A stretch of 64,000 nucleotides of DNA from Patescibacteria group bacterium. Lineage in GTDB: Bacteria > Patescibacteriota > Patescibacteriia > Magasanikbacterales > GWA2-37-8. Positions 1,173-63,802 of the stretch are shown in pieces. The stretch is taken from the NCBI GenBank assembly GCA_004321885.1, contig SCQK01000014.1, forward strand, positions 32,001-96,000, read 5' to 3'. Both the position numbers and the translations under genes were made by a program. Position 1 is the stretch's first letter, and every line of letters starts with the position of its first letter. The notes below the pieces were generated by a model. The model did no database searches, was not told the DNA's origin, and saw only the letters and a program-made list of their open reading frames with translations.

Positions 1173-3869
1173 ATGAAAGAACTTCCAAAGGCCTACGAGC
1201 CGCGAAAATACGAGGATAAGATATATGAACGTTGGGAAAAGAGCGGGTTGTTCAACCCCGATGTTTGTGTGGAAAAAGGCGTTGCCGATAAGAAGGCGAA
1301 GCCGTTTTCCATTGTCCTGCCTCCGCCCAACGTGACCGGCACCTTGCATTTGGGCCAGGCCTTGATGCTGTCGGTGCAGGATTTGCTGGTTCGTTATCAC
1401 CGCATGAAGAGCGACAAGACCTTGTGGGTGCCGGGCACTGACCACGCGGCAATTGCCACGCAGACCAAAGTGGAGAAATTGCTGATTCAGCAGGGGGTGA
1501 AAGACCCGCGCGCTGAATTGGGCCGGGAAAAATTTTTGAAAGAAGTAAACAAATTCGCGCAGGAATCGCACGATATCATCGTGAACCAGTGCCGCAAAAT
1601 GGGCGCGTCCTTGGATTGGACGCGTGAGGCCTTTACTTTGGACGAGCAAAGAAATCTGGCCGTGCGCACGATGTTCAAGATGATGTACGACGACGGCCTT
1701 ATTTACCGCGGCCATCGCATTGTAAACTGGTGCCCGCGTTGTCATTCCACTCTGGCCGACGACGAGGTGGAGTACAAAGCCCAGGCCGGCAAACTTTACA
1801 CTTTTAGATACGCCGATGATTTTCCTTTTGCCATTTCCACCACCAGGCCCGAAACCAAGCTGGGCGATACGGCCGTGGCCGTAAACCCGAACGACGAGCG
1901 CTATAAAAAATATATCGGCAAAGTTTTTGAAGTAAAAAAATTCGCGGGCGGACCGGATTTGAAAATAAAAGTGATTGCCAGCGAAGACGTGGACACAGAC
2001 TTTGGCACGGGCGCGCTTGGCGTTACTCCGGCGCACAGCTTTGCTGACTATGAAATGGCGCAAAAAAATAAATTGCTGGTGATTAAAGTGATTGATGAAG
2101 ACGGGAAAATTACCAAAGAGGCCGGCAAGCATTATAAGGGGTTCACGGTTTTGGAAGCGCGGGCGCGGGTGCTGGAAAACCTGCGCGAATTGAATTTGCT
2201 GGAAAAAGAGGAAGATGTTTCCAATAATTTATCTGTTTGCTATCGCTGTGAAAGTCCGGTGGAGCCTATTCCCTCCAAGCAGTGGTTCATAGACGTGAAC
2301 AAGAAATTCAGAATCAAGAATGAAGAATTAAGAATAAAGGGATTGAAAGTGAACAGCGAAGTGACGTTGAAACAATTGATGTCGGTCGCGGTGAAAAATG
2401 GACAGATAGAAATTATTCCGGACCGCTTCAACAAAACTTATTTTCATTGGATAGACAATTTGCGCGACTGGTGTATCAGCCGGCAAATTTGGTACGGCCA
2501 CCAGATTCCGGTGTGGTACAAAGGCGAGGAAATTTTCGTGGACGTAGAGGCGCCAAAGGGCGATGGCTGGGCTCAAGACCCAGATACGCTGGATACCTGG
2601 TTCAGCTCTGGCCTGTGGACTTTTTCCACACTTGGCTGGCCCGACAAGACCGATGACTTGAAAAATTTTCATCCCACCTCGGTGATGGAAACCGGTTATG
2701 ATATTTTATTTTTTTGGGTGGCGCGCATGATTTTGATGACGACTTACGCGTTGGGCGATATTCCTTTTGAAAAGGTTTATCTGCACGGTTTGGTGCGCGA
2801 CGAGCAGGGGCGCAAAATGAGCAAATCGTTGGGTAACGCGATTGACCCGCTGGACATGATAAGAGAGTATGGAGCCGACGCCGTCCGCCTGTCGTTGCTT
2901 ATTGGCACCAGCCCGGGCAATGATATGAAGCTGTCGGTGGAAAAAATCGCTGGTTTTCGCAATTTCACCAACAAGCTGTGGAATATCTGCCGGTTTATGC
3001 TGATGAACATCGGCAAGGATGTCATTCTGACCCCGACTCAGTCGGGGGAAGAATCCCTTTCAAAAACCCTGGCCGACAAGTGGATTTTGAATCGGTTGCG
3101 CGCAGTAATTAATATTGTCACAGAAAATATTGAAAAGTTTAATTTTTCTTACGCCGGAGAGCGTCTGCGCGATTTCACCTGGGGCGATTTGGCGGATTGG
3201 TATTTGGAGGTCGCAAAAATAGAAGGTGATAAGTCGGAAATCTTAAATTACATTTTAAGCGTGATTTTGAGACTTTGGCACCCGTTCATGCCCTTTGTCA
3301 CCGAACAAATTTGGCAGGATATTTATGGGAAAGAAAAAATGTTGATGGTGGAAAAATGGCCGGAAAAAATTAAATCGTTAGTTGATTCTTCACTCATCGG
3401 GATGACTGATTTTGATTATGCGAGAAATATAATTTTTCAACTTCGCTCATTGCGAGCTGAATATAAAATTGAACCGACAAAAAAAATAAATGTCGCAATC
3501 AGCGCGGGCGCTAAAGAACAAATTTTGAAGGATAACAAGGAGATGATCGTTAAAATGGCTAAAATTGATAATTTGATAATTGGAAAAGAGGTAAAAAAAC
3601 CGATAAACGCAGTTACATTTTTTGAACCGCCATGTGTTACTGTTTTTATGGACCTGGCTGGTTCGGTGGATTTGGTCAAGGAAAAAGAACGGCTGAAAAA
3701 AGAAATTGAGCAAACGGAAAAATATGTGGAAATACAAAAGAAAAAATTAGCCAACAAAGAATTCGTGGCAAACGCCCCCGCAGAAATCGTGGAAAAAGAA
3801 CAGCAGAAACTTTCTGAATGTGAAGCGAAGCTGGGGAAATTAAAAAATCAATTGAAGAGTCTAAAATGA
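1173..3869 (+). CDS. valS: Valyl-tRNA synthetase
   Basis: 898 aa. HIGH-type motif PPPNVTGTLHLGQA, KMSKS (GRKMSKSLGN), C-terminal coiled coil typical of ValRS. Confidence 0.95.
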   Translation: MKELPKAYEPRKYEDKIYERWEKSGLFNPDVCVEKGVADKKAKPFSIVLPPPNVTGTLHLGQALMLSVQDLLVRYHRMKSDKTLWVPGTDHAAIATQTKVEKLLIQQGVKDPRAELGREKFLKEVNKFAQESHDIIVNQCRKMGASLDWTREAFTLDEQRNLAVRTMFKMMYDDGLIYRGHRIVNWCPRCHSTLADDEVEYKAQAGKLYTFRYADDFPFAISTTRPETKLGDTAVAVNPNDERYKKYIGKVFEVKKFAGGPDLKIKVIASEDVDTDFGTGALGVTPAHSFADYEMAQKNKLLVIKVIDEDGKITKEAGKHYKGFTVLEARARVLENLRELNLLEKEEDVSNNLSVCYRCESPVEPIPSKQWFIDVNKKFRIKNEELRIKGLKVNSEVTLKQLMSVAVKNGQIEIIPDRFNKTYFHWIDNLRDWCISRQIWYGHQIPVWYKGEEIFVDVEAPKGDGWAQDPDTLDTWFSSGLWTFSTLGWPDKTDDLKNFHPTSVMETGYDILFFWVARMILMTTYALGDIPFEKVYLHGLVRDEQGRKMSKSLGNAIDPLDMIREYGADAVRLSLLIGTSPGNDMKLSVEKIAGFRNFTNKLWNICRFMLMNIGKDVILTPTQSGEESLSKTLADKWILNRLRAVINIVTENIEKFNFSYAGERLRDFTWGDLADWYLEVAKIEGDKSEILNYILSVILRLWHPFMPFVTEQIWQDIYGKEKMLMVEKWPEKIKSLVDSSLIGMTDFDYARNIIFQLRSLRAEYKIEPTKKINVAISAGAKEQILKDNKEMIVKMAKIDNLIIGKEVKKPINAVTFFEPPCVTVFMDLAGSVDLVKEKERLKKEIEQTEKYVEIQKKKLANKEFVANAPAEIVEKEQQKLSECEAKLGKLKNQLKSLK
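3031..3047. repeat. Perfect palindrome CCCCGAC-TCA-GTCGGGG inside valS
   Basis: Read directly: ccccgactcagtcgggg, encoding ...TPTQSGEE.... Same CCCCGAC/GTCGGGG arms as the 38-nt element and the pseudo-tRNA hairpin. Confidence 0.6.
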
Positions 3870-5086: not shown

Positions 5087-6822
5087 AGATAATTACAGAC
5101 AAAATTGAGAAGTTTTTAACGGAAGCCGGAATCGTCGGTGAAATTAAATTTAAAAAACCCGATCCAAAAATATTGGATGTTTTTGATTACGATATTGCTA
5201 TTCCTTGTTTTAATTTAAAAACGAGGGTGCAAGATAACGCGGAAGGGGTCATGGTTGCGCAAAGGATTGTTGGTAGTTTGAAAAGCGCAAGGACAGAGCT
5301 GCCGTTTTTAGATGAAGTTAAACAAGTAAGTTCATACGTTAATATTACGTTAAATGCAGGCGAAATAGCTAATTTAGTTTTGCGGCAAGCCACAAAAAAA
5401 GATTTTGGCGCCAGCAAAACGGGCAAAGGAAAGAAAGTAATGGTGGAGTTCGCGCATCCCAACACGCACAAGCAATTTCACATCGGCCATTTGCGCAATA
5501 TCTGCACCGGCGAAAGCGTGGCGCGTATTTTGGAAAACGCCGGCCACAAAGTTATCCGCGCGAACTATCAGGGCGATGTGGGGATGCACATTGCAAAATG
5601 CCTGTGGGGCATTTTGAAATTTCCAATTTCCAATTTTCAATTTCCAAAAGCGATTGACGAGCGGGTGAAATTGCTTGGCGAAGCGTACGCGAAAGGGGCG
5701 CTGGCTTACGAAGAAAGCGAACTGGCCAAAAAAGAAATTGAAGTCATCAATGAAAAAATTTATTCTAAAAAAGATAAAGATATAAATAAACTTTACAAAG
5801 AAACGCGCGAATGGAGCTTGGAATATTTTGGTAAAATTTACAAACGAGTCGGCAGTAAGTTTGACCGGCTGTATTTTGAATCAGAGACATTCGCGCCGGG
5901 CAAGGACATAGTGCTGGTCGGTTTGAACAAAGGGATTTTCAAGGAAAGCCAGGGCGCGGTAATTTTTGAGGGAGAAAAATACGGCTTGCACAATCGCGTG
6001 TTTTTGAACAGCCGCGGCTTGCCGGTTTACGAAGCCAAAGATTTGGCGCTGGCGAGACTGCAATTTCAGGAATACAAACCAGAATATATTTTACACGTCG
6101 TGGCCAAAGAACAGACAGATTATTTCAAGGTTGTTTTCAAAGCCATGGAGTTTACTTTGCCCGAGAGCAAAGGCCGGGAAAAGCATTTGGTCTATGGCTG
6201 GGTGAGTTTGAAAGAAGGCAAGATGAGTTCGCGTTCGGGCAACGTGGTTTTGGGCGAGTGGCTTTTGGATGAAGTAAAAAAGAAAGTGGCTGAAGCAATG
6301 AAAGAGCACAATGTGCGGGATAGGGAAGGGGTGCTGGAAAAAGTGGCTATGGCCGCGGTGAAGTATGCTTTCCTGCGAACAAGCATCAGCAACGATATTG
6401 TTTTTGATATAAACCAGTCGGTGAGTTTAACCGGGGACAGCGGGCCGTATCTGCAATACATTGTCGCGCGCATTAGTAGCATCCTCAAAAAAGCAGGCAG
6501 GGGTTCGTTTGGTCTCCCCTTTAGAAGGGGAGATGCCCCGCAAGGGCAGAGGGGTATTGAACCGGCAGAAAAATCACTCCTTCTTTCTCTTTCCGAATTT
6601 CCCGAGGTCGCCCAAAGCGCGGCCGAAGAAACAGACCCGTCCAAAATCGCGCATTATCTGCTGGGACTGGCGCAATCATTCAATAGTTTTTACGGCCAGT
6701 GTCCGGTATTACCGGCCGATGAAGAAATGAAAAAATTCAGATTAGCGATAATTAGGGCGGTAAAAAATGTAATGGAAAAAGGATTGCGTTTGCTCGGCAT
6801 TGAGAGCGTGGAAGAGATGTGA
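5083..6822 (+). CDS. argS: Arginyl-tRNA synthetase
   Basis: VEFAHPNTHKQFHIGHLRN class-I motif, C-terminal DALR-type anticodon-binding region. ATG at 5083 overlaps the tyrS stop (ATGA). The ORF track start 5065 is a GTG extension. Confidence 0.85.
   Translation: MKIITDKIEKFLTEAGIVGEIKFKKPDPKILDVFDYDIAIPCFNLKTRVQDNAEGVMVAQRIVGSLKSARTELPFLDEVKQVSSYVNITLNAGEIANLVLRQATKKDFGASKTGKGKKVMVEFAHPNTHKQFHIGHLRNICTGESVARILENAGHKVIRANYQGDVGMHIAKCLWGILKFPISNFQFPKAIDERVKLLGEAYAKGALAYEESELAKKEIEVINEKIYSKKDKDINKLYKETREWSLEYFGKIYKRVGSKFDRLYFESETFAPGKDIVLVGLNKGIFKESQGAVIFEGEKYGLHNRVFLNSRGLPVYEAKDLALARLQFQEYKPEYILHVVAKEQTDYFKVVFKAMEFTLPESKGREKHLVYGWVSLKEGKMSSRSGNVVLGEWLLDEVKKKVAEAMKEHNVRDREGVLEKVAMAAVKYAFLRTSISNDIVFDINQSVSLTGDSGPYLQYIVARISSILKKAGRGSFGLPFRRGDAPQGQRGIEPAEKSLLLSLSEFPEVAQSAAEETDPSKIAHYLLGLAQSFNSFYGQCPVLPADEEMKKFRLAIIRAVKNVMEKGLRLLGIESVEEM
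6514..6534. repeat. In-frame palindrome TCTCCCC-TTTAGAA-GGGGAGA inside argS
   Basis: Perfect 7-bp arms. Encodes GLPFRRGDA in an ArgRS insertion region. Confidence 0.6.
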
Positions 6823-10619: not shown

Positions 10620-10684
10620 AGCCCGTCCAGTAGCTTTTTTTCAAAAAATGTTGTAAAATATATTAGATTCCAGCGTTCGCTGGA

Positions 10685-11179
10685 ATGACAAGTAAAAATA
10701 TTATGATTTTTCAAAGAACTCCCAAATATCAGGAAGCCGAGGAAAGTTTTCAAAACGAAGAGGCGGCCGCGGGCGCCGATAACGTGGAAACCGTGGTGGG
10801 GCCATCGGTAAACGTGGAGGGCGATTTTTCATCCGAGGGCAATATCGTGGTGAAAGGCACGGTGGCCGGCAGTGTGCACACCAGCAAGCATTTGTCCGTG
10901 GAAGAGGGCGCCAAGATAATGGCCAACGTCAAAGCCGGCAGCGCGCGCGTTGCGGGCGAGGTAAAGGGCAATATGAAAATAAAAGAAACTTTGGAGCTGA
11001 CCGCCTCGGCCCGGGTGCTGGGCGATATTGAGGTGAAGACCATACAGATAGAATCTGGCGCCTTGCTTTACGGGCGAATAATCATGCCCGGCCTGGAGGG
11101 AATGGAACCGAAAACTTCGCGTCAAAAATACACGACCCGCAAGAACGATTCCTTGCCGGCAGAGAGTTTGCTGAATTAA
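10685..11179 (+). CDS. Bactofilin-family cytoskeletal protein
   Basis: 164 aa. Repetitive beta-helix-like VVGPSVNVEGDFSSEGNIVVKGTVAGSVH...ARVAGEVKGNMKIKETLELTASARVLGDIEV pattern typical of bactofilin (DUF583). Confidence 0.6.
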   Translation: MTSKNIMIFQRTPKYQEAEESFQNEEAAAGADNVETVVGPSVNVEGDFSSEGNIVVKGTVAGSVHTSKHLSVEEGAKIMANVKAGSARVAGEVKGNMKIKETLELTASARVLGDIEVKTIQIESGALLYGRIIMPGLEGMEPKTSRQKYTTRKNDSLPAESLLN

Positions 11180-14887: not shown

Positions 14888-14939
14888 AACCTCGCCCCAC
14901 CCCTCTTAATCAAGGGGAGTGAGGGGGAGGAGTAAAAAC

Positions 14940-19162: not shown

Positions 19163-20458
19163 ATGCTCCGTTCCATTGTTCAATATCTTTTACGTTGGTT
19201 CGCCAAGAAAATCGTAAAAAAATACAAACCCGATATCGTCGGCATTACCGGCTCGGTGGGTAAGACCTCGGCCAAGGAAGCGGCCGCGGCCGTGCTGGCG
19301 CGGCGGTTTTCCGTGCGCCGCACTGTCAAAAATTACAACAATGAGATCGGCGTGCCGCTCACGATTTTAGGTTTTGACAAAACCCCGGGCGCTTCGGTTT
19401 GGGGCTGGTTGAAAGTTTTTAGTCGGGCACTGGCCTTGCTTTTCGCGCGCGACAAAAATTATCCGGATATTTTAGTTTTGGAAATGGGCGCGGACAAGCC
19501 GGGCGACGTGCAGTATCTGGTGGACATGGCCCCGTGCAAAGTGGGCGTGCTGACTTTTATTTCCCACGCGCACACCGAGTTTTTTAAGACCATCAAGAAA
19601 ATCGCCCAGGAAAAGAGGATCATTATTTCGCATTTGAACCGCGACGGTTTCGCCGTGCTGAATTTTGACAGCGAACTCGTCATGCAAAACGCCTCCGCCA
19701 CCAAAGCGGAAATTGTCACCTATGGCTACAAAGAAGGGGCGGATTTGCGCGTGACGGATGTAAATTTGATTAAGGATGAAATTACCGGCTGGCCCACAGG
19801 CATGAATTTCAAGGTCATTTTCAAGGGCAGCGTCATTCCGGTTTTTCTGCCGCGCGCCATTGCCAAAAGTCCGCTCATTTCGGCCGCGGCCTGCGGGCTG
19901 GCCATTGGCACGGTGTTTGGGGTGAATTTGATAGAGGGCTCGCAGGCTTTAAGCGAGCTGGAGCCCCTGGCCGGACACATGTGTCTGCTTCCCGGAATCA
20001 AGGAGACTTTGATTGTTGATGATACGTATAATTCCAGCCCCGAGGCCGTCAAAGCCGCGCTGGAATCCTTGGCCCAGATAAGCATTGGGCTGGAAGGGGC
20101 GCGTTATGCTGTTTTAGGCGATATGCTGGAACTGGGCGCGGAAACCGAAAACGCGCACCGCGAACTGGGCTTTCTGGCGGCCGGGTTGGGGATAGACCAT
20201 TTGTTAACAGTCGGCGTGGCGGCCAAGCATATGGCCGCGGCTGCGCGCGAGGCCGGTCTGAACACGGATAAAATTTTCAGTTTTGACCAATCCGGCGAGG
20301 CTGGCAAATTTTTGCAGGAACGGATGAAAAGAGGAGACGTGATTTTAGTCAAGGGTTCGCAAAGCATGCGCATGGAGCGTATTGTTAAAGAAATCATGGC
20401 CGAGCCGGCCCAGGCCGAGAAGCTTTTGGTGCGCCAGGGCAAAGAATGGCAAAATTGA
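19163..20458 (+). CDS. murF: UDP-N-acetylmuramoyl-tripeptide--D-alanyl-D-alanine ligase
   Basis: VGITGSVGKTSAKE P-loop, NNEIGVPLTILG (MurF signature), DDTYNSSPEA. Confidence 0.75.
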   Translation: MLRSIVQYLLRWFAKKIVKKYKPDIVGITGSVGKTSAKEAAAAVLARRFSVRRTVKNYNNEIGVPLTILGFDKTPGASVWGWLKVFSRALALLFARDKNYPDILVLEMGADKPGDVQYLVDMAPCKVGVLTFISHAHTEFFKTIKKIAQEKRIIISHLNRDGFAVLNFDSELVMQNASATKAEIVTYGYKEGADLRVTDVNLIKDEITGWPTGMNFKVIFKGSVIPVFLPRAIAKSPLISAAACGLAIGTVFGVNLIEGSQALSELEPLAGHMCLLPGIKETLIVDDTYNSSPEAVKAALESLAQISIGLEGARYAVLGDMLELGAETENAHRELGFLAAGLGIDHLLTVGVAAKHMAAAAREAGLNTDKIFSFDQSGEAGKFLQERMKRGDVILVKGSQSMRMERIVKEIMAEPAQAEKLLVRQGKEWQN

Positions 20459-20504
20459 CTTTTGCGCTTCCTTAATATAACATTATCTCCATAACATTTC
20501 CCGT

Positions 20505-30323: not shown

Positions 30324-30352
30324 GTCATTCCAGTCCGGGAACTGGAATCCAG
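30324..30352. repeat. Intergenic palindromic element GTCATTCC-AGTCCGGGAACT-GGAATCCAG
   Basis: Shares the GTCATTCC...GGAATCCAG ends with elements at 31209 and 34464 (ATTCC-N-GGAAT arms, dRS3-like shape). Confidence 0.55.
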
Positions 30353-31208: not shown

Positions 31209-31235
31209 GTCATTCCCGCGAAGGCGGGAATCCAG
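31209..31235. repeat. Intergenic palindromic element GTCATTCCCGCGAAGGCGGGAATCCAG
   Basis: ATTCCCGC-gaag-GCGGGAAT perfect hairpin with the same flanks as the 30324 copy. Confidence 0.55.
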
Positions 31236-34509: not shown

Positions 34510-34620
34510 ACCGACAGTAGGGTATCACGTTTTTTTGCGCTTTTCAAGGGGTAAAATTTGTGATAGAATATGCCCTGTCCGCTGGATTACCAGCGACAGA
34601 TAATTTTTACCCCCACCCAA

Positions 34621-34643
34621 CCTCCCCCTTTTAAGGGGGGAGG
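34621..34643. repeat. GC-rich palindrome CCTCCCCC-TTTTAA-GGGGGGAGG upstream of pilT start
   Basis: Member of the CTCCCC-TTAxAAA-GGGGAG family. Lies in the N-terminal extension of the track ORF before MNIESY. Confidence 0.55.
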
Positions 34644-35688: not shown

Positions 35689-35802
35689 ATGGATATGGAG
35701 ATGGAAATAAGTTACTCGTGAAAATTGTATTTGGGTTTGTATTTTGGTATAATGAAAGCAGAGGGGAGTTTTAATTTACCGCCAGTGGCGGGTAAAAAAT
35801 AT

Positions 35803-36312
35803 ATGCGCTTGAGAGTCATAATTTTGGCGTTGGTTTTGTTGGTCGCGGGGTTGCTGGCGGTTTTCGCTGGTTATGGATGGTTTTGGGAAAAGCAAAAACG
35901 GGTGGCGGCCGGCACGGCGCGGCCCACGTTTCCATACGGCGATTATTCGCTGGAAGAATTGGCGAAATTGTACCCGCAGACCGTGAACGAGAACGTGCCC
36001 ACCAAACAGGCGCCCGAGGAAACGCACGCGAAGTTTGTGTCTGCGTTGAAAGCGGGAAAAATTGATGAGGCAGTGGAGTGTTGTTTTAGGAAAGGGGATT
36101 GGGGGAAGATGAAAGAAGGATTGAAGAGGGTGAGGGATAAAGGCGAAATGGGCCAGATGATTAAGGATTTGGATGCGGCGATTAAACCTGATTTTGTAGG
36201 AGATACAAAGGCGAGTTATACCTATATCGTTTTAGAGAACGGAAAAAAGATTGGTAATGTTATGACTTTTATAAAAAACATTCAGGGTATCTGGTTGATA
36301 GAGTCATTGTAA
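35803..36312 (+). CDS. Hypothetical membrane-anchored protein
   Basis: MRLRVIILALVLLVAGLLAVFAGYGWFW N-terminal TM. No recognisable domain. Confidence 0.35.
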   Translation: MRLRVIILALVLLVAGLLAVFAGYGWFWEKQKRVAAGTARPTFPYGDYSLEELAKLYPQTVNENVPTKQAPEETHAKFVSALKAGKIDEAVECCFRKGDWGKMKEGLKRVRDKGEMGQMIKDLDAAIKPDFVGDTKASYTYIVLENGKKIGNVMTFIKNIQGIWLIESL

Positions 36313-36361
36313 TTACCCATTCTTAATCCTCCCCTTGTAAAGAGGAGGGTAATACAGCAAT

Positions 36362-39300
36362 ATGCGAAGAGCGAAAATAATATTTTTCATTATTATCTTC
36401 GCCGCGTTCAGCTCGGCCGCCTTTGGCGGTCGTGTTTTGTCTTTTGACACCAATATCGCTCATCCAAACATCGCGACATTGGCCGTAAAGCTTTACAATG
36501 AGAATTTTGACCCGGATTTAACCGAGGAACAGACGCGTTGGATAGAGCAGGGAGCTGTTGCCGAGGACACGCCCAACCGGTGGTACAACCATTTTTACGA
36601 CCCGGTCTACAATCGTGGCATCTGGTTTGGCAAACAACATTTATCAGCCAAAAATTGGGCTGTTAATCCCCGAGCTCAAACTGGTTTTGCCTTGGGCGAC
36701 AAGAGCTGGCAAAGAGCGCTTGATGATTTTAGAAATAGTGATGAGGAAAAGGCATACAGGGCCCTGGGGCATATTATTCACCTTATTTCAGATATGGCTG
36801 TGCCGGCGCATACCCGAGACGACATTCATCCGCTCGGCGATTCGTTTGAGCAATTTGTGAAAAAGAATTGGGCCAGCGCGACAAAGAATTTGCGCTATGG
36901 AATGATATCTGTATCTGATTTAGATTCAGCTTTTGATTCTGTGGCCAATTATTCAAACAATAATTTTTATAGTGATGATACGATTGAAAATAAAAAATAT
37001 CAGAATCCAGATTTGAATCACATTATACTAAAATATGTGGAAGTTGGAAATGGCATTTCTTATAAATTTTTAGTCAATTCAGTTGGTGGTCAAGAAAGTT
37101 TGCTTTGTAGAACTAATAGCAATAAGAATTGGTTAGACACTCTTGGGGATGACATTCTAAAAGAGTGCAAAGTTGGTGATGATCTCGTTCTCACCGACTA
37201 CTCCCGCCACCTGCTCCCAAAAGCCATCGGTTACAGCGCCGGAATTATTAAACTATTTTTTGACCAAGCCAAGAGTGATAAGGAAGTGGGTAATTTGCCC
37301 GGCAAAAGAACTAGTTTTTCCGGATACCTTGATCAATTTCTTGGTTTCGCTGTCTCGGGAGCGGAAAAATTATACAGCGTGATTAAGATAGCGTTAGGAA
37401 TAGAGCCGGCTTATTCCGAGGGAAGCGCGGAGATTGAGGAACAAGCGCCCTCCCTCCCGCCAGAGGCAGGCAAGCATCAAGGGGAGGGAACGACCACAAC
37501 CACACCAACCACGCCAACCACGACCAACGTCGCGCAGACCACGACCAAACCCAAACCCCCCGCCACCATAAAAAAAGCGGTCGGGAGAAAGACCGGGGCG
37601 TCTGGCGCGCCGGTCGCTGGCTCCATAGTCCCCGACTTAGTCGGGGCTGTGGAGCCCAATGCCAGCACCCTGGCTCCACAGCCTCCTGCGGGGGACAATG
37701 GAGCCAGCCAAGAAGGAACGACGACCACGCCTGTGTATTTTCCTCCATCGTCAAGAGACGGGGGAGCGTATCCGCCAAATACCCCTCCCCTAATAGGGGA
37801 GGGAGATGTTGTGCCTACCACCACCCCGACACCCACCACCACCCCGTCTTCTACAACTACCCCTTCGTCCACCACCACCCCAACCCCCTCCCCCACCACC
37901 ACTCCCACCAGCACTCCGGCTCTGCCACCGCCACCGCTCGTCATCAGCGAAATCGCCTGGGCCGGCACCTCGGCCGCCAGGTCCAACAACGAATGGCTGG
38001 AGCTTTACAACAACTCCACCTCGTCAATAGATTTCACCTCGGGCTGGAAAATTTTTGTTTCCGGCGCCCAGCTCAACATCTCCAATTTTGTTAATCCAGT
38101 CATTTTACCAAAAACATATTACCTGTTGGAACGCACCGACGATTTTACGGTCAAAGAAATTTCCGCGGACGCGATTTACACCGGCGCCCTAAACAATAAT
38201 GGCGCGAAAGTGGAACTCGTCAATCCAAGCGGAGAAACCATAGACACCGTGGACGGCTCCTCGGGCTGGTTCGCGGGTCAGGCCAGTCCCAGTTACGCTA
38301 GTATGGAAAGAAAAGACCTCACCGCCAGCGGTACGAGTCCCGGCAACTGGCAATCCAGCATTGGCGGGCGCGCCACTGGCACGAGCGATGAAATGCCGCC
38401 CAAGCCCATCATGGGCTCGCCCAAACGCCCCAATTTCGGCTACATTGTGCTTACTGGTACCCAAGCCCAAACCACCCGCACACTCACCACAGACAACAGT
38501 CCCTATCTTTTGTGGAGTTACACTATTCCAGCCGGCTTTACATTAAACATCAATCCCGGCGTGGTGATAAAAAGTTACACCCAAAGCGCGGTGATGATTG
38601 TAGATGGGACGCTGAATGTTGGCGGGGGAGACAATAAAGTCATCTTCACCTCGGGCAAAGACCAGTCTTTCACCAGTCCCGACCTCAACCTGATAGACAT
38701 CAATTATCTTTGGACAACTCCCGGGCCGGCTGAAAAAGATTGGCAGGGGCTGTGGTTCAAGCCCGGCTCCCAGGGCAACATCGCCAATACAGAAATCAGA
38801 TACGCGGGCAAAGAGTTTTACCCCACCGGAGGCCCGGCCATGTCCCAGGGCATTCGCGCCGAATCCGGGCTTTCCCTATCAAACTCCACCATCGCCAACT
38901 CCGGCTCCGCGCTTATCTTTCTCCAAAATGCTTCTTCCACCATTACTAACACCAACTTCACCGGCTCCGATCTGGCCATAGAAGCCAACAATTCCCGGCT
39001 CACAATCAACGGCGCGCACTTCACGGGCTTTGGCTCACAGGGCCCTTTGCAAATCAAAGACGCCTGGCCCGAATTTTCCAATCTCACCTACACCACCGGC
39101 ACTGTGCCTTATGCCCGTTTGTACATGGTAAAAACCAGCGCCCCGCAGACCACGGCCAAAAAAGAAATCAATTACCTCTTTGACAACATTGAAGTGGCGT
39201 CTTCCACCACCTTAAACATTGAACCCGGCGCCAACGTCAAAATGACCAACAGCTCCATACTCACGGTCAATGGCGTTCTCAATGCCAATGGCACGCCCAC

Positions 39301-39805: not shown

Positions 39806-41298
39806 ATAAAATTTTCAAAAAAATTCAGGCAGTGGCCCAAAAAAATAAGACCCCGTGCTATGTGGTGGGCGGTTTTGTGCGCGATATGCTGATGGACAAG
39901 GCGCGGGAAAAAGACGTGGATTTTGTGATTTTGGGAAGCGGGCTGGGGTTTGCCAAAAAATTTGACCAGGCCATGAAGCAAGAGGGGAGTTTAATTGAGT
40001 TTCCGGATTTTGACACGGCGCGGTATATTTTGACCCCTTCTAAATCCTCCCCTTATCAAGGGGAGGATAACGAGCAAATCGTGCTGGAGTTCGCGGGCGC
40101 GCGAGGGGAAGAATATGACGAGAAAAGCCGCAAGCCCAGGGTAAAGCCGGCCACGTTAAAACAAGATTTAGAGCGCCGCGATTTTACCATCAACGCGATG
40201 GCCATGAGTATTGACGACTACCCCTCCGGCCGTCCGCCACAGGGCGGACGGCCGCCTCCCCTTATAAAGGGGAGGCTGATAGACCCGTTCGGCGGGCAGG
40301 AAGATTTGAAAAATAAAATTCTGCGCACGCCGCTTGACCCGGACAAAATATTTTCCGAGGACCCTTTGCGCATGATGCGCGCCGCGCGCTTCGCGGGCCA
40401 GCTTGGTTTTGCCATAGACACTTTTGCTTTGCAGGCCATTTACCGCAACCGCGAGCGCCTGAAAATCGTTTCGGCCGAGCGCGTGCAAGAGGAGCTGTTA
40501 AAAATGCTTTCCACGCCCGAGCCATCTATTTGTCTGGCTCTGCTTTTTCAAACCCACCTGTTGGATTTGGTGTTGCCAGAGGTGGCCAAGCTGGACGGGG
40601 TGGAAGAAATTTACGGCCACCAGCACAAAAACAATTTATCACACACCTTTAAAGTGGTGGACAATATCGCCGAGCGCTCGCCCAAAGTCATGTTGCGCTT
40701 TGCCGGCCTGCTGCACGACATCGGCAAGGCGTCCACTAAAAAATTTATTCCGCGTCAGGGCTGGACTTTTTACCAGCACGAGCACATGGGCAAAAAAATG
40801 GTTTATCAAATCGGCAAGCGCCTGCGCTTGTCCACGGACCACACGGATTATTTGGCCAAAATGGTGCGCTGGCACCAGCAGCCGATAAGCCTGATGGACA
40901 AGGGCATCACGGATTCGGCGGTGCGTCGCCTGATTGTGAATTTGGGTGATGAGTTGGAAGATTTGTTGATACTTGGCCGGAGCGACATTACCACGGGCAA
41001 TCCGTTGAAAAAAGAAAAACGCCTGGGCAATTACGACCGACTGGAAAAGCGCATTGCCGAGGTTTTGGAAAAAGATAAATTGCGCGCCTTTCAGTCGCCG
41101 GTGCGCGGGGAAGAAATCATGAAAGAGTGCGGCTTGAAAGCCGGGCCGACAGTGGGAAAAATAAAAGACGCGATAGAGGAGGCCATTCTTGACGGAATCA
41201 TACCAAATGAGTATGATAAAGCGAGGGAGTACTTGTTTGAAATTAAGAATAAGTATCTGGAAAAAGCCCAGGATTGGGAAAGAGTGAAAAATATATGA
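39796..41298 (+). CDS. cca: CCA-adding tRNA nucleotidyltransferase with HD domain
   Basis: VVGGFVRDMLM...DVDFV (PolyA_pol head), C-terminal HD motif FAGLLHDIGK. Contains two adjacent palindromic inserts. Confidence 0.8.
   Translation: MVLDKIFKKIQAVAQKNKTPCYVVGGFVRDMLMDKAREKDVDFVILGSGLGFAKKFDQAMKQEGSLIEFPDFDTARYILTPSKSSPYQGEDNEQIVLEFAGARGEEYDEKSRKPRVKPATLKQDLERRDFTINAMAMSIDDYPSGRPPQGGRPPPLIKGRLIDPFGGQEDLKNKILRTPLDPDKIFSEDPLRMMRAARFAGQLGFAIDTFALQAIYRNRERLKIVSAERVQEELLKMLSTPEPSICLALLFQTHLLDLVLPEVAKLDGVEEIYGHQHKNNLSHTFKVVDNIAERSPKVMLRFAGLLHDIGKASTKKFIPRQGWTFYQHEHMGKKMVYQIGKRLRLSTDHTDYLAKMVRWHQQPISLMDKGITDSAVRRLIVNLGDELEDLLILGRSDITTGNPLKKEKRLGNYDRLEKRIAEVLEKDKLRAFQSPVRGEEIMKECGLKAGPTVGKIKDAIEEAILDGIIPNEYDKAREYLFEIKNKYLEKAQDWERVKNI
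40046..40068. repeat. In-frame palindrome TCCTCCCC-TTATCAA-GGGGAGGA in cca
   Basis: Perfect 8-bp arms, encodes SSPYQGED. Confidence 0.6.
40227..40276. repeat. Tandem in-frame palindromes CGGCCGTCCGCC-acag-GGCGGACGGCCG + GCCTCCCC-TTATAAA-GGGGAGGC in cca
   Basis: 12-bp and 8-bp perfect stems sharing one G. Encode SGRPPQGGRPPPLIKGRL between conserved Cca blocks. Confidence 0.6.
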
Positions 41299-46332: not shown

Positions 46333-48147
46333 ATGACCGACACTCAAGCCATCAAAGACCGGCTGGATATTGTGCAAATCATCGGCGAATATCTGCAGTT
46401 GAAAAAAGCCGGGGCCAACTGGAAGGCCAACTGCCCATTTCATCAGGAGAAAACCCCGTCTTTTATGGTGCACCCGGAAAAGCAGATATTTCATTGCTTT
46501 GGCTGCGGCAAAGGCGGGGATGTTTTTACCTTTGTGCAGGAAATGGAAGGGTTTGATTTTCCCGAAGCCCTGAAATTTTTGGCTGACCGCGCCGGGGTGA
46601 AGATAGACACGTATCGCAGTGAAATAGACAAAAGCCAGCGCAACCGGATTTTGGAAATCAACAACAAGGCCGCGTATTTTTTTCATCATTTTTTACTGGA
46701 AATGCCCGGGGCGCAAAAGGCCCGCGATTATTTAACGGAAAGAAAATTAAAACCCGAAACAATAGAAGAATGGCAGGTGGGCTTTGTGCCTGACCAGTGG
46801 GACTTGCTTACGCAATATTTATTAAAAAAAGGATTTGGCATAGATGATTTGGTTTTAGCGGGGTTGACCATAAAAAGAGAAGGGGCCAGCTTGTACTCGG
46901 GCAAGGGTTTTTACGACCGTTTTCGCGGTCGCATCATGTTTCCCATTTGGGACGCGCACGATAATGTCGTCGGTTTTACGGGCAGGATTTTGGTGGAAAC
47001 CGAACATTCCGGCGGCAAGTACGTCAATACTCCCCAAACCCTGGTTTATGATAAGTCACGCGTGCTTTACGGCATAAACAAGGCCAAACAAGAAATAAAA
47101 GCCAAAGATTTGGCTGTGCTAGTGGAAGGACAAATGGACGTCATCGCTTGCCATCAGGCCGGCATGAAAAATGTCTTCGCGGTTTCGGGCACGGCCCTGA
47201 CTGCGGAGCAGATAAAATTAATAAAGCGATACACCAACAACGCGGCCTTTGCTTTTGACGTGGACGCGGCCGGGCAAAACGCGGCCAAGCGAGGGATAGA
47301 CGCGGCCATAGAACAAGGCTTGAACACAAAAATTGTTCAACTACCCGAAGGCGCCGGCAAAGACGCGGATGAGTGTATAAAAGCAAATTCACAAATTTGG
47401 TTCAAGGCTGTGGAACAAGCCAAGGATGTGATGCAATGGCTGTTTGAAAAAAATTTGGCCGGGGTGGATATAGTCGACCCCAAGCAAAAACAGAGAGCCG
47501 GGCACAATTTACTCATAGAAATCAGCCGTTTGCCTTATGCTTTGGAACGCGACCATTGGCTAAAAGTATTGGCTGAGCGCCTGCGTGTGGACGAGGAAGT
47601 ATTGAGAGAAGAAATGAAGAGCGCGGCCAAAGACGCGGCCAAAGAAGACAGGCGCGGCGGTTCCCCTCCCATTGATAAGAAGAGGGATGGGGAGGGGTCT
47701 GTGAACACATTAGTTGTTCAAACCCGCTATGACCTGCTCCTGCAGAATCTGTGGGCTTTGCTTCTTAAATACCCCTCGCTCATTAGCGCGTTTTGGAGCT
47801 CGCTGAAAGAGGACTATTTTTCCGGCACAGGGTTTGGATTGCTTTACGATTTGGCGAAAAAGAGGTATAATACCGGCAGTGTGTCGCCCGAGGATTTGAG
47901 GGCTGATTTTGGCAACCAAGAGCAAAATTTTATTGATGTTTTATTGCTCAAGGCAGACACCATTTATGGCGATTACAAAGAGAGTGAGAGCGCGAAAGAA
48001 ATTGAATTGATTTTGGCCGAGTTAAATAAAAGCTGGGTGAAAAACAAGCGTGAACAGCTGATGGAAAAATTGAAAGAAGCGCAAAAAAACGGGGATTTGG
48101 GCGAGGTTAAAGATATTTTGTATAAAATTATTGAGTTAAACGAATAA
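46333..48147 (+). CDS. dnaG: DNA primase
   Basis: Zn-finger CPFHQEKTPSFMVHPEKQIFHCFGCGKGGD, TOPRIM EGQMDV...SGTALT. ATG 46333 (the track start 46288 overlaps the upstream gene). Confidence 0.85.
   Translation: MTDTQAIKDRLDIVQIIGEYLQLKKAGANWKANCPFHQEKTPSFMVHPEKQIFHCFGCGKGGDVFTFVQEMEGFDFPEALKFLADRAGVKIDTYRSEIDKSQRNRILEINNKAAYFFHHFLLEMPGAQKARDYLTERKLKPETIEEWQVGFVPDQWDLLTQYLLKKGFGIDDLVLAGLTIKREGASLYSGKGFYDRFRGRIMFPIWDAHDNVVGFTGRILVETEHSGGKYVNTPQTLVYDKSRVLYGINKAKQEIKAKDLAVLVEGQMDVIACHQAGMKNVFAVSGTALTAEQIKLIKRYTNNAAFAFDVDAAGQNAAKRGIDAAIEQGLNTKIVQLPEGAGKDADECIKANSQIWFKAVEQAKDVMQWLFEKNLAGVDIVDPKQKQRAGHNLLIEISRLPYALERDHWLKVLAERLRVDEEVLREEMKSAAKDAAKEDRRGGSPPIDKKRDGEGSVNTLVVQTRYDLLLQNLWALLLKYPSLISAFWSSLKEDYFSGTGFGLLYDLAKKRYNTGSVSPEDLRADFGNQEQNFIDVLLLKADTIYGDYKESESAKEIELILAELNKSWVKNKREQLMEKLKEAQKNGDLGEVKDILYKIIELNE
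47663..47697. repeat. In-frame imperfect palindrome CCCCTCCC...GGGGAGGGG in dnaG
   Basis: Encodes GGSPPIDKKRDGEGS in the DnaG C-terminal linker. Confidence 0.45.
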
Positions 48148-52299: not shown

Positions 52300-53631
52300 T
52301 CAAATTTTTATTTCTTTGATTTTATTTTGTAAAGTTTGTTTTGATTTTACTCGCACCCGCACAAATTCCGGCGTATATCCCGCGAAGTAGCCGGATTTTT
52401 TTTGTTCAAACAGTACTGGGCGGGTTTTGCCGGTGAATTTGGCCGCGAATTTTTTGGCCTCGGCTTTGGAAATTTTGAGCAGTTTTTTTACGCGTTCGGT
52501 TTTGATTTTGTCCTGCACTTGGTTTGGCATTTTGGCCGCGGCAGTGCCAGGGCGCGGAGAAAAAGGGAAAACGTGTATTTTGGCAAAGCCCCCGCCAAAG
52601 GCGGGTCCGTCTTGGGCGGACATTTTTTTTACAAACGCGCAGGTCTCGGTGAATTCTTTTTCGGTCTCGCCCGGGAAGCCGACGATAATGTCGGTGGTAA
52701 AAGAAAACAGGGGATTGGCCTGGCGCAGTTTTTGAACAATTCCAAGATATTGTTTCGCGTTATATCCGCGCCGCATCCGTTTGAGCATTGTGTCCGAGCC
52801 CGATTGCAAGGACAAATGCCAATGCGGCATCAATCTGTTTTGTCCCCCCTTTTTAAGGGGGGAATAAAAGGGGGGTAAGAATAATTTTATTAATTTTTCC
52901 GAAATCAGCCGCGGGTCCAGCGAACCGAGCCGGATGCGCTCTATTTTTGTTTCTCGTAAAATTTTTTTCAGCAGTTCGGCCAAGTCTCCCCCACTGCCAG
53001 AGGGGGGGACGAAGGGGGGGTGGGAGCTGTCTTTGTATTGGCAAATATTTACTCCGGTCAGTACCGCTTCTTTATAGCCGTCTTTTTCCGCTTCTTTGAT
53101 TTTTTTTATCACCGCCTCGGATGGCACACTTCGCGTTCGGCCGCGGAAAGATGGAATAATACAATAGGCGCAGTTAAAATTACAGCCGGTTTGGATTTTG
53201 ATGAGAGTGCGTGTTCTATCATTGCGTAGCCGAGCGGTCGGATGTGTTCGTAGCGCCTTATGCCGCCGCAGCGGCATGGCCGAGGCCTCGCGGCCGAGGG
53301 AAGCGAGAACACATCCGACCGCTCCTCTGCGAGCTTCGCAATGGCTCACAACTTCCTCATTCCCTCTCGCCACAAAATCAATCTCGGGCAAATCCTTGTT
53401 TTCCAGACAGCCAACCGCGATTACGTACGCCCCGCGCCGTTTGGCCCGCCGAATCATCTCGCGCGTGGTCTGACTGGCGTCCACGGTCACTCCGCAGGCG
53501 CGCACCACGGCTACGTCTTCGTGCGCGCCAAAAAGCACGACAGAAAAACCTCGCTGTACGAGGTCTTTTTTCAGTTCTTCTGTCTCGGCTTGATTCAATT
53601 TGCACCCCAGGGTGTGGAATGAAATTTTCAC
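52300..53631 (-). CDS. Radical-SAM methylthiotransferase, MiaB/RimO/MtaB family (MtaB-like) carrying palindromic inserts
   Basis: N-terminal MTTase ISFHTLGCKLNQAETE, radical SAM IQTGCNFNCAYCIIP, C-terminal TRAM. 443 aa, inflated by inserts. Confidence 0.75.
   Translation of the reverse strand: MKISFHTLGCKLNQAETEELKKDLVQRGFSVVLFGAHEDVAVVRACGVTVDASQTTREMIRRAKRRGAYVIAVGCLENKDLPEIDFVARGNEEVVSHCEARRGAVGCVLASLGREASAMPLRRHKALRTHPTARLRNDRTRTLIKIQTGCNFNCAYCIIPSFRGRTRSVPSEAVIKKIKEAEKDGYKEAVLTGVNICQYKDSSHPPFVPPSGSGGDLAELLKKILRETKIERIRLGSLDPRLISEKLIKLFLPPFYSPLKKGGQNRLMPHWHLSLQSGSDTMLKRMRRGYNAKQYLGIVQKLRQANPLFSFTTDIIVGFPGETEKEFTETCAFVKKMSAQDGPAFGGGFAKIHVFPFSPRPGTAAAKMPNQVQDKIKTERVKKLLKISKAEAKKFAAKFTGKTRPVLFEQKKSGYFAGYTPEFVRVRVKSKQTLQNKIKEIKI
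52843..52863. repeat. In-frame palindrome TCCCCCC-TTTTTAA-GGGGGGA in the MtaB-like gene
   Basis: Encodes (minus strand) FYSPLKKGG. A second imperfect one at about 52985-53010 encodes HPPFVPPSGSGG. Confidence 0.5.
53220..53344. mobile_element. About 125-bp highly structured palindromic insertion with 18-bp perfect terminal inverted repeats inside the MtaB-like coding sequence
   Basis: GAGCGGTCGGATGTGTTC (53232-53249) and its exact reverse complement (53307-53324). Outer CATTGCG/CGCAATG. Internal ATGCCGC-cgca-GCGGCAT. GC-rich. Translated as a 40-aa insert between the MTTase and radical-SAM domains. Confidence 0.55.
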
Positions 53632-61972: not shown

Positions 61973-63802
61973 TTACTCCCACTCAATAGTTCCGGGTGGT
62001 TTGTTGGTGAGGTCGTAGAAGATGAAGTCCACGGCGTTTAGAGCGTGGATTTTTTTGATGATTTTTTTCAGAGTGGGCGAGGGTATGACGCCAAACGAGA
62101 CGGTCATCGCTTCTTCTGATTCCACGGGTCGCAGGACAATTGATTCGCCGTGCTTGTGCCCAAACGGCACGAGCACCGTGGGCATTTGCCAGATTTTTTG
62201 GCATTGCTTGTCGGTCAAAATGGCGCTGTCGGCGATGTCATCTATTTTTCGCAAAAGGTCCAGCCGTTTTTTGGTAAGATACGCTTTTTTCAGCGTGGCT
62301 TTTGGCAATGATTTTTTGTCGCCGGAAACAAGCAGTAGAACGCGGTTGATGTCTTTGTGGGCGTTGGTGATTTTAGGAGAAAGGGATTGATAATACCCCC
62401 ACCCGGCCTCCCCCTTATAAAGGGGGAGGGGACCTGTGATAACGGCGGGGTGGGCGTAGGAGCGCTCGTCGCCTTGCACGCCCACGGATTTGATGGGGAG
62501 ACGCCAAATTGTTGGCTCCACAGCCCCGACTAAGTCGGGGACTATGGAGCCAGCGTCGTTTGATCCTTCCGAGCACAGACAGCGAATGGCCAGGCCCGGG
62601 CCCGGAAAGGGATGGCGGTTTATCAATTTTTGCGGCAGACCGAGCTTAAGGCCGATGGCGCGCACTTCGTCTTTGTACAAATCCTTAATCGGCTCTATGA
62701 TTTTTCCTTCGGCGATCATTTGTTTTATCCGCGGTACGCGATTGTGATGCGTTTTTATGACGTCGGCGTTTTTGGTGCCGCCCGATTCAATAGTGTCGGG
62801 ATAAATGGTGCCTTGGCCGACCAACCATTTGTCTCCGGTCAATTTTTTTCTACCAGACCCGCCTTTGGCGGGTTCGGCCATTACTTTGTCCACAATATCC
62901 AAAAACAAATCGCCGATGATTTTTCTTTTTTGTTCCGGATCAGACACGCCTTTGAGCGCGGATAAAAATTCTTTTTCGGCGTTATACACCCGCAAGTTGT
63001 CTCCCAGTCGCTTCAGAGCCGCTATGATTTTTTTTGTCTCATCCAACCGCATCAGGCCGCTGTCAATGTGCAAGCCGAAAACCCTTTTTTCGCCAAGCAC
63101 TTTTCGCAATAGGGCGAAACAAACCGTGGAATCAACGCCGCCGGAGACGAGCAAGAAAACATTTTTACCGCCCGCTTCCTTTTTTATATTTTTTTCAATT
63201 TGATCCAGCATTGTCTCTGTCGTCCAGTTTTTTTCCGCCCCGCAAATATTTAAAATAAAATTGGCCAGAATTTTTTTTCCTTCTTTCGTGTGATTTACTT
63301 CCGGATGAAACTGAAAGCCGAAGAACTTTTTTGATAAATTTTGCATGGCCGCCACCGAACGGTTGCCGGTTGAAGCGATTGGCGTAAAACCGAACGGCAG
63401 TTTGTCCACGTGATCGCCGTGGCTCATCCAGACAACGGTATTTTTACTTACGCCCGAAAAAATCGGCGAGGCGCTGACGGATAATTTCGCCAAACCGTAT
63501 TCACGCGCCTTGCCCGATTCAACGCGCCCGCCAAAAAAATCTGCCATCAACTGATGCCCGTAGCACAGACCCAAAATCGGCGCGCTGAGCGTAAAAATTT
63601 TTTTATCAAAAGGCAAACGCGCGTCGCGCACCAGCGAACGCGGACCGCCGGAAAGGATGATTCCACACGCGTTTTTCAATCGTTCGGCTTTGACGTTATT
63701 CGGGTAAATACGTGAAATAACGCCCAGTTCGCGCACGCGACGGGCGATGAGATGGGTGTACTGGGAACCGAAATCAAGGATGGCGATTTCACTTTTTGGC
63801 AT
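61973..63802 (-). CDS. guaA: GMP synthase (glutamine-hydrolysing), with in-frame palindromic inserts
   Basis: GATase [22 protein letters not shown]...GLCYGHQLM...HGDHV. ATP-PPase [14 protein letters not shown]-terminal dimerisation domain. ATG 63802. Confidence 0.85.
62407..62429. repeat. In-frame palindrome CCTCCCCC-TTATAAA-GGGGGAGG in guaA
   Basis: Encodes (minus strand) [11 protein letters not shown]. Confidence 0.55.
62514..62551. mobile_element. Second copy of the 38-nt palindromic element (encodes [13 protein letters not shown] in guaA)
   Basis: Reverse complement is identical (38/38) to 37619-37656. The flanking CGCTGG is also shared. Confidence 0.7.

Follow-up and report, generated by a model that had tools for sequence, protein, structure and literature searches.

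How do short, GC-rich hairpins come to be scattered in frame through conserved genes of a compact bacterial genome? This question is raised by a stretch of 64,000 nucleotides (hereafter the window) from a Patescibacteria group bacterium (contig SCQK01000014.1, positions 32,001 to 96,000, of assembly GCA_004321885.1), in which hairpins with a C-rich 5' arm and a G-rich 3' arm lie within housekeeping genes and in 5' leaders. The window has 49% G+C, is ~93% coding and carries nearly all of its genes on the + strand; its DNA is also present in Logan contigs of SRR8426592. The host genes were assigned by NCBIfam as argS, pilT, cca, dnaG, mtaB, guaA and valS, and close homologues of the cca and guaA proteins are all from Patescibacteria, chiefly Magasanikbacteria. 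We find that the hairpins form a dispersed family of lineage-specific in-frame loop insertions, that their unit is shared across phyla, and that in other genomes such hairpins bracket genes of the DUF559 endonuclease family. On balance, we favour the explanation that the window copies are solo elements resembling repetitive extragenic palindromic (REP) sequences, which belong to a (formerly) mobile, DUF559-associated superfamily and are now probably inert passengers.

The family was delimited by a strict rule, namely a 7-nt arm of C and T only with at least 5 C, followed 3–11 nt downstream by its exact reverse complement. Under this rule the 64 kb contain 7 copies, compared with a mean of 0.047 and a maximum of 1 in 300 dinucleotide-preserving shuffles, while the mirror class (G arm first) has 0 copies in the window. 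The original prediction had named equal frequency in shuffled sequence as an outcome that would speak against it; the actual relation is 7 to ~0.05. A search with the consensus CCTCCCC-TTATAAA-GGGGAGG, allowing up to 3 mismatches, gave 4 loci (0.00 expected); owing to the palindromic form of the element, the tally is 6 when strands are counted separately. Hairpins with a perfect stem of 8 bp or more, whatever their type, are also in excess (28 versus 8.9 +/- 3.0 in shuffles), and one quarter of them belong to the C-arm/G-arm family. Since a plain C4..G4 regular expression was only weakly enriched (11 versus 5.7), the stricter rules were applied. Eight copies are clear members (6513-6533, 34621-34643, 36328-36348, 37783-37803, 40046-40066, 40255-40275, 52843-52863 and 62407-62429), with stems of 7–11 bp and 0–1 mismatch, and two are degenerate (52987-53009 and 14899-14926). 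Seven of these ten are intragenic and all are singlets; the unit is oriented on the + strand in ~5–6 cases and on the - strand in 2, which are small numbers. The copies, referred to as family 1, are listed below with an adjoining hairpin of another kind and a doubtful member; ORF stands for open reading frame.

6513..6533, - strand: hairpin TCTCCCC-TTTAGAA-GGGGAGA in argS, peptide LPFRRGD.
14899..14926, + strand: degenerate intergenic copy.
34607..34643, + strand: composite unit TTACCCCCACCCAA + CCTCCCCC-TTTTAA-GGGGGGAGG in the 5' leader of pilT.
36313..36348, + strand: composite unit TTACCCATTCTTAAT + CCTCCCC-TTGTAAA-GAGGAGG, 13 nt 5' of the ATG of a 1147-aa ORF.
37783..37803, + strand: hairpin CCCTCCCC-TAATA-GGGGAGGG in the 1147-aa lamin-tail domain (LTD)/beta-helix ORF, peptide PPLIGEG.
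40030..40066, + strand: composite unit TTGACCCCTTCTAAAT + CCTCCCC-TTATCAA-GGGGAGG in cca (site 1).
40227..40254, + strand: different, perfect 12-bp hairpin CGGCCGTCCGCC-ACAG-GGCGGACGGCCG in cca, peptide GRPPQGGRP, abutting the next family-1 copy.
40255..40275, + strand: hairpin with the exact consensus CCTCCCC-TTATAAA-GGGGAGG in cca (site 2), peptide PPLIKGR.
47663..47697, + strand: doubtful member in the dnaG linker, with 8-bp arms and a 19-nt loop.
52843..52878, - strand: composite unit, read on the gene strand, TTACCCCCC-TTTTAT-TCCCCCC-TTAAAAA-GGGGGGA in mtaB (site B), peptide LPPFYSPLKKGG.
52987..53009, - strand: degenerate copy in mtaB (site A), region DSSHPPFVPPSGSGG.
62394..62429, + strand: composite unit TACCCCCACCCGG + CCTCCCCC-TTATAAA-GGGGGAGG in guaA (site B), a gene which itself lies on the - strand.

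All hairpin sequences put forward in the original prediction are present in the window, and its claim of a dispersed family, in frame in conserved genes and in 5' regions, is borne out by the shuffles and the orthologues. Its figure of about 1 copy per 6 kb holds and every coding copy reads in an open frame, as it had said; the argS copy had been placed at 6514-6534, one base off. The view that the hairpins are neither terminators nor CRISPR-like also holds, with most copies lying within ORFs or just 5' of start codons and no T-run following them. As RNA, single hairpins fold with -15 to -22 kcal/mol (argS -15.6, guaA family-1 copy -21.5). At the gathering threshold, Rfam recovered only five tRNAs in the window, and at the E-value threshold no family matched at the hairpins of the eight loci searched. 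A potential to form a G-quadruplex or i-motif may reside in GGGGAGGGTTAGGGTGGGG.

When the copies were aligned together with their flanks, the hairpin proved to form only the 3' part of an asymmetric unit that spans ~36 nt: T(T)ACCCCnCC(C)-(T)AAn + CCTCCCC + TTATAAA/TTATCAA + GGGGAGG. The unit length of 21–25 nt proposed at first is therefore too short, the C-rich 5' extension being part of the unit. This extension occurs in five window copies (pilT leader, upstream of the 1147-aa ORF, cca site 1, mtaB site B and guaA site B), and the composite unit is common to these five and to loci in six other phyla. Coding copies use only frames free of the loop stop codon (TAA). At two sites the end of the unit coincides with ancestral codons, namely G-E-G/D in cca (GGG GAG G) and a conserved Trp in guaA (GGN TGG GG); these two cases hint at insertion beside, or by, microhomology. 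The unit does not have the anatomy of a MITE, a miniature transposable element of 50–500 bp that is related to an insertion sequence and has terminal inverted repeats and a target-site duplication, as it is ~36 nt long and asymmetric, and no direct repeats flank the clean cca or mtaB insertions.

Alignments of 50–120 orthologues each show the coding copies to be insertions specific to this lineage and placed in variable loops. The original prediction had pointed to orthologues sharing the same peptides as a sign of ancestral sequence, but the peptides are absent from orthologues at cca site 1, at both mtaB sites, in guaA and in argS, and the pilT-leader element is likewise absent from relatives. 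At mtaB site B, a clean gain of 11–12 aa over ~100 orthologues corresponds to a complete 36-nt unit. The protein is also ~11–12 aa longer than most orthologues at site A, a stretch that is partly common to the nearest relative (P0241) and thus suggests an older insertion. In cca, a 27-nt insertion at 40033-40059 encodes TPSKSSPYQ, nine extra residues ahead of GE, at a position where most orthologues (n=120, 65–72% identity) read (V/I)(L/I)-GE(G/D)EEQIV; the G arm of the hairpin coincides with the ancestral G-E-(G/D) codons. The second cca hairpin is present as described before, but its site shows a net gain of 4 aa only and holds two adjoining hairpins with a joint fold of -46.3 kcal/mol (z -8.4). 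Other orthologues have PPATPLKGGL, PPRAPLRGG or IPPLRKGS there. Deltaproteobacteria (L013) and locus L107 likewise have hairpins similar to the adjoining type (GTCCGCC..GGCGGAC) beside their family-1 units.

The remaining sites agree with this picture to differing degrees. In guaA, where CCCCACCC overlaps the codon of the Trp conserved in orthologues, the family-1 site is 6–9 residues longer than in the nearest relatives, and the argS linker exceeds that of its closest representative (P0361) by 6–7 aa. The leader copy of pilT continues its G arm into GGAGGAG, 8 nt 5' of the real pilT ATG at 34657, a start that fits the beginning of homology at ORF residue 30; in 20 relatives the pilT leaders are short, AT-rich and without the element. 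The dnaG sequence reported earlier exists at 47663-47697, but its membership is doubtful owing to the 19-nt loop and its position in a linker that is hypervariable in 12 orthologues, without a clean insertion. The AlphaFold2 model of the cca protein (predicted local distance difference test, pLDDT, mean 84.5) has only two long stretches below 50, residues 86–92 and 144–156; both lie in loops and overlap the residues that the two hairpins encode. In the alignment with homologues of solved structure, the latter are gapped here.

The same loops harbour inserts of other kinds in other lineages, including P..L.(K/R)G peptides (PPATPLKGGL, SPLLRGR, LPPRRGE), GC hairpins and tandem heptamers (CAAAGTC), and are therefore recurrent landing sites. 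For example, cca site 1 of L122, L136, L140, L158, L182 and L135 carries tandem heptamer arrays of AAAGTCN, ATAAAGTT, AAAATTC or AGGAGTA, which are read through all three frames in turn (e.g. QSPKSKV). Another type of inserted peptide in these loops (P0184, P0168, P0243 and several cca homologues), with ...RGVKRRGDP..GLLRF(A/S)RND... and ...SLSLRMT..., is probably the translation of another palindromic repeat that occurs across phyla.

The distribution of the hairpin reaches far beyond Patescibacteria. When one genome per species was searched for CCTCCCCTTATMAAGGGGAGG, at least 118 loci were obtained, compared with ~0.5 expected by chance as estimated from the collection size. Among the matches listed, most are from Nostoc, Chamaesiphon, Microcoleus and other cyanobacteria; Nitrospirae, Nitrospinales, Deferribacteres, Deltaproteobacteria, Turneriella and other Spirochaetota, a planctomycete, a Flavobacteriaceae metagenome-assembled genome (MAG), Serratia, Falkowbacteria and Magasanikbacteria account for others. 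In the same set, the exact 21-mer occurs in dozens of contigs of Nostoc, Desmonostoc, Scytonema and Dolichospermum, and TTACCCCACCC(T/C)AAC/AGC precedes almost all copies, although the search did not require it. Many listed copies form inverted doublets or X-Y-Y'-X-X'-Y' arrays. Doublets occur in Nostoc and, near the DUF559 genes treated below, in Pseudanabaena and Sinorhizobium. Only 5 of 123 listed copies lie within ORFs of at least 250 aa (118 lie outside), so the intragenic habit is special to the compact genome of the window. A viral vector was rejected as the carrier, IMG/VR containing 1 exact match only. Literature searches with the sequence strings returned unrelated eukaryotic papers only.

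Which machinery might accompany these elements? The ORFs lying up to 2.5 kb from ~120 copies were clustered all against all. Most clusters were generic (kinases, tetratricopeptide repeat/WD40 proteins, nonribosomal peptide synthetases, ABC proteins), and a single recurrent small ORF stood out: DUF559 (PF04480 by Pfam), a Vsr-like protein with the PD-(D/E)xK fold. All four DUF559 genes among the listed matches (at least 118 loci) lie within 200 nt of a hairpin, and they come from 3 phyla (Falkowbacteria L045, Nostoc L062 and L100, Nitrospiraceae L012). Units stand on both sides of the gene in the loci from Nostoc and Falkowbacteria. In P0163, a guaA homologue from Patescibacteria, the protein is joined to an upstream DUF559, which is flanked by hairpins likewise.

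An independent sample was drawn by searching plasmid records with the Nostoc DUF559 protein, and 12 loci were fetched, from Synechocystis (2), Pseudanabaena (2), Picosynechococcus, Deinococcus, Azospirillum, Photobacterium, E. coli, Neisseria, Sphingobium and Sinorhizobium. C-arm/G-arm hairpins were present ~150 nt or less from DUF559 in 12 of 12, mostly on both sides. Most of these loci share a build of C-tract, C-tract and hairpin, that of E. coli being degenerate, and the arms are lineage-specific (CCTCCCCC, CCCCTCTCCC, TCCCCCA, CCCCCTTCTCCC, ATCTCCCCC). The Photobacterium locus has the window's own hairpin type, TAACCCCACCTAG-CCTCCCCCTT-GAA-AAGGGGGAGG. In views of 40 kb, hairpins within 300 nt of DUF559 make up 6/11 in Pseudanabaena, 2/5 in Azospirillum and 1/3 in Deinococcus, and in Photobacterium an array of 15 hairpins starts ~70 nt past the DUF559 gene. 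Altogether, DUF559 genes bracketed by same-type C-arm/G-arm hairpins were found at 17 loci of other genomes. In the titles and abstracts of the papers examined that mention DUF559, no link to dispersed repeats was found. The family has been reported to be 14-fold enriched among predicted inversion targets, i.e. genes flanked by inverted repeats (PMC9881135), and a homing endonuclease of a group I intron is among the members of the Vsr/DUF559 clan (PMC3424549).

Several side observations concern these loci. The Photobacterium plasmid (L218) carries arrays of 14–15 family-1-type hairpins at 20404-21952 and 36606-39937, spaced by 55–190 nt in the manner of bacterial interspersed mosaic elements (BIMEs). 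A module (A/C)CCATGCGAAGCATGG(T/G) stands between C/G-armed hairpins in a Deltaproteobacteria MAG (L013) and, beside DUF559, in a Sphingobium plasmid (L213), which suggests composite units built from shared modules. Several DUF559 genes of cyanobacterial plasmids lie within defence loci (L203, L205, L206), next to the bacteriophage exclusion (BREX) protein PglX or a DUF1156 methylase, and annotated DUF559 coding sequences often run across the flanking hairpins.

Based on these data, we can outline how the hairpins might have arrived. The element would belong to a superfamily of poly-C/poly-G-armed hairpins present across bacteria, whose autonomous form may be a DUF559 endonuclease gene, Vsr/PD-(D/E)xK-like, bracketed by hairpins, an analogue of the REPtron. 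The nuclease could nick or cut at or beside element-like sequence, and repair might then copy the hairpin from another copy into the break via microhomology. Mobilisation by DUF559, and spread by such nuclease-initiated, microhomology-templated copying, is what we infer from the sequence comparisons. The data do show where the copies have survived. A genome that is ~93% coding offers few neutral landing sites, and the surviving copies therefore lie in 5' leaders or, in frame, in variable surface loops of housekeeping enzymes. There, the CCN/GGN codons of the hairpin are read as short Pro...Lys/Arg-Gly...Gly/Glu loops that are presumably tolerated, and frames with the loop stop codon (TAA) have been purged by selection. 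The window copies themselves are most likely inert passengers.

Some results weigh against this explanation. The window contains no DUF559 gene, nor was a tyrosine transposase or any other transposase found in its 64 kb; related Patescibacteria loci (~900 kb around cca) have few, scattered hairpin relatives and no DUF559. The metagenome scan yielded no relative above ~70% protein identity, and neither a precise empty site nor a target duplication nor any recent movement came to light. Moreover, at cca site 2 and at guaA site A the change amounts to a net replacement within a variable loop and not to a clean insertion, and the microhomology seen at two sites may have come about in the alignment by chance. 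Finally, the adjacency of DUF559 and hairpins is silent on which moves which, and an alternative is that DUF559 homes into hairpins instead of moving them.

The rival that fares best places the motor elsewhere: the hairpins would be REPs or REP doublets (REPINs) moved by a Y1/HUH transposase, either a REP-associated tyrosine transposase (RAYT) or a TnpA of the IS200/IS605 type, encoded elsewhere in the genome, with DUF559 as a lodger in REP clusters. We consider this unlikely, yet it has real attractions. The conserved T(T)AC at the 5' edge of the unit resembles the TTAC target of IS608, and REPs are known insertion hot spots. The size and palindromy of the hairpins, the inverted doublets of Nostoc and Sinorhizobium and the Photobacterium clusters fit REP/REPIN anatomy. 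In addition, Chamaesiphon copies (L074) lie within long GCGTAG...CTACGC palindromes, like GTAG-tagged REPs, and intragenic REPs are documented (PMC3733652). However, the GTAG/CGTC tag is absent from the window copies and from most others, no conserved transposase-like neighbour was detected within 2.5 kb of ~120 copies, where DUF559 is the sole recurrent small neighbour, and no Y1 transposase is found among the 10 unassigned ORFs of the window.

A far less probable account has the hairpins immobile: template switching or quasi-palindrome correction would create them locally at C/G-rich codon runs, and mutation bias or a constraint of the Shine-Dalgarno/anti-Shine-Dalgarno kind would make them converge. 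It gains from the overlap of the G arm with ancestral G-E-G/D codons at cca site 1 and of CCCCACCC with the conserved Trp codon of guaA, and from the repeated gain of differing small repeats in the same loops, slippage-type heptamer arrays included. Yet local copying cannot yield an asymmetric 36-nt unit whose 5' extension, arms and loop (TTATAAA/TTATCAA) agree between 5 sites of the window and across six phyla, and it leaves the clean 36-nt mtaB insertion and the copy in an AT-rich leader unexplained. Retention by host function, whether as DNA uptake signals (competence/type IV pilus), as RNA structures in translation or mRNA decay, or as useful protein loops, appears the most improbable of all: the stable folds (-15 to -22 kcal/mol), two copies with GGAGG just 5' of start codons and the pilT gene in the window would suit it, but the host proteins and sites are unrelated, the peptides fall in low-confidence loops, relatives do without the hairpins, uptake sequences are species-specific whereas the 21-mer is identical in many phyla, and the genome hardly uses Shine-Dalgarno sequences.

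Returning to solo, DUF559-associated elements as the favoured explanation, a wider and clearly more speculative proposal can be attached to it. DUF559 proteins might be the missing mobilising nucleases of the whole poly-C/poly-G REP-like superfamily, including REPs without a tyrosine transposase, and might act without transposition, through nicks or cuts and the microhomology-templated repair that comes after them, thereby remodelling the surface loops of essential enzymes in compact Patescibacteria. This is a possibility that we regard as tentative.

The window also contains palindromes of other kinds. A second family is represented by the following copies.

3031-3047: core only, CCCCGACTCAGTCGGGG, in valS.
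37619..37656, + strand: 38-nt palindrome GGCTCCATAGTCCCCGACTTAGTCGGGGCTGTGGAGCC in the 1147-aa ORF, RNA fold -36.5 kcal/mol, z -5.8.
37672-37705: related copy in the region of the 1147-aa ORF.
62514..62551, - strand: palindrome in guaA, RNA fold -34.8 kcal/mol, z -7.6.

The two full copies, at 37619-37656 in the 1147-aa ORF and at 62514-62551 in guaA, encode an identical 14-residue peptide in frame. The outer arms of this family, GGCTCCA(T/C)AG..C(T/A)(G/A)TGGAGCC, are found again next to the DUF559/hairpin cluster in Falkowbacteria L045. The 1147-aa ORF, probably a surface protein, belongs to a lineage-specific 4.1-kb insertion (35725-39805) that itself holds 3–4 hairpin units: in nine relatives cca comes immediately after pilT, and here two ORFs lie between them, one of 195 aa without a Pfam match and the one of 1147 aa with a lamin-tail domain and a weak beta-helix match. 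Neither has a homologue in the related loci. A third hairpin type, ATTCC(A/C)G(C/T)-loop-(A/G)C(T/G)GGAAT, is found 10–50 nt past gene ends at 10667-10686, 30327-30348 and 31212-31231 and probably represents transcription terminators of this genome; in the relatives L124 and L135, ATCCCCGC-GAAA-GCGGGGAT stands in a similar role. An 18-bp perfect hairpin at 43029-43067, between the genes of an HlyD-like protein and an ABC ATPase and followed by GGAGGGGTATTTTT-ATG, also looks like a terminator and provides one of the three GGAGG motifs that precede start codons in the window.

The leader copies bear on translation as well. Only 9 of 51 gene starts have a Shine-Dalgarno match, weak at best, so the genome is essentially Shine-Dalgarno-free; in relatives, promoter-like TGnTATAAT boxes occur near the starts. 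The three true GGAGG motifs are all hairpin-derived and precede pilT, the 1147-aa ORF and the gene at 43082. As the leader copies supply GGAGG that would be partly sequestered in the stem, translation of pilT and the 1147-aa ORF could be affected, a possible side effect of the insertions. A switch based on Shine-Dalgarno sequestering was rejected as the main explanation of the family because most copies are intragenic and the Shine-Dalgarno sequence is rarely used.

What do these elements add to the understanding of Patescibacteria? The occurrence of selfish DNA within protein genes, familiar from Rickettsia and a few REP-rich bacteria, is extended to the Candidate Phyla Radiation, and hairpin insertion offers a source for many of the small, lineage-specific loop insertions in Patescibacteria housekeeping proteins. 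A unit that is almost base-for-base alike in cyanobacteria, Nitrospirae, Deferribacteres, spirochaetes, proteobacteria and Patescibacteria demands some machinery or vector that these groups share. The bracketing by hairpins gives DUF559, a widespread family, a testable role and makes it a candidate partner for RAYT-less REP families. For annotation, such insertions account for spurious N-terminal extensions and for 'hypothetical proteins' rich in P...KG..G motifs.

Among known systems, Nostoc provides one close parallel. The small dispersed repeats (SDRs) of this genus, which Elhai and co-workers are said to have described in 2008, are reportedly hairpin repeats of 21–27 nt, with eight named families, that lie within MITE-like units and beside heptamer tandem repeats. 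To our knowledge, SDRs have been described in cyanobacteria only, and neither a partner of the DUF559 kind nor copies in frame within essential genes have been reported for them. Our exact 21-mer is abundant in Nostoc and falls into the 21–27-nt class, and heptamer arrays occupy the same cca loop in relatives of the window genome.

The Rickettsia palindromic elements (RPEs; Ogata et al. 2000) are, as summarised in PMC10969869 and PMC3184786, ~100–150 bp long, encode 30–50 aa in frame in protein genes and are limited to Rickettsia. Our hairpins share with them the character of palindromic selfish DNA that lies in frame in unrelated housekeeping genes of a reduced genome and adds a tolerated surface peptide. 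In contrast to RPEs, the units here measure 21–38 nt (7–12 aa), are common to several phyla and reside in a Patescibacteria host. Free-standing homing endonucleases of the Vsr-like EDxHD type (PMC3424549) offer another parallel, since there too a small PD-(D/E)xK nuclease gene acts as a selfish insert, and a break followed by templated repair could copy flanking sequence to new sites. These enzymes, however, copy themselves into one cognate site, whereas here short hairpins would be copied to many sites by a predicted cleavage.

The strongest likeness in anatomy is to REPs, REPINs and REPtrons, which are also palindromes of 20–40 nt in many copies, arranged as singlets, inverted doublets and clusters, and which in the REPtron include a small nuclease gene bracketed by its own repeats. 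Some GTAG/CGTC REPs even lie in frame in conserved genes, including those of replication and repair (Di Nocera et al. 2013, PMC3733652). Our elements differ in lacking the GTAG/CGTC tag, in place of which they have the C-rich 5' extension T(T)ACCCCnCCC and poly-C/poly-G arms, and in bracketing DUF559 (PD-(D/E)xK, Vsr-like) instead of an HUH tyrosine transposase. REPs are predominantly extragenic, while most window copies are intragenic; copies in other phyla are mainly extragenic. In-frame palindromic repeats (RPEs and intragenic REPs) and the small hairpin repeats of Nostoc are thus known, and what appears to be new is the Patescibacteria host with most copies in essential genes, the near-identical unit across phyla and the partnership with DUF559. 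With neither the tag of REPs nor the size of RPEs, the hairpin family is best filed as a REP-like kind.

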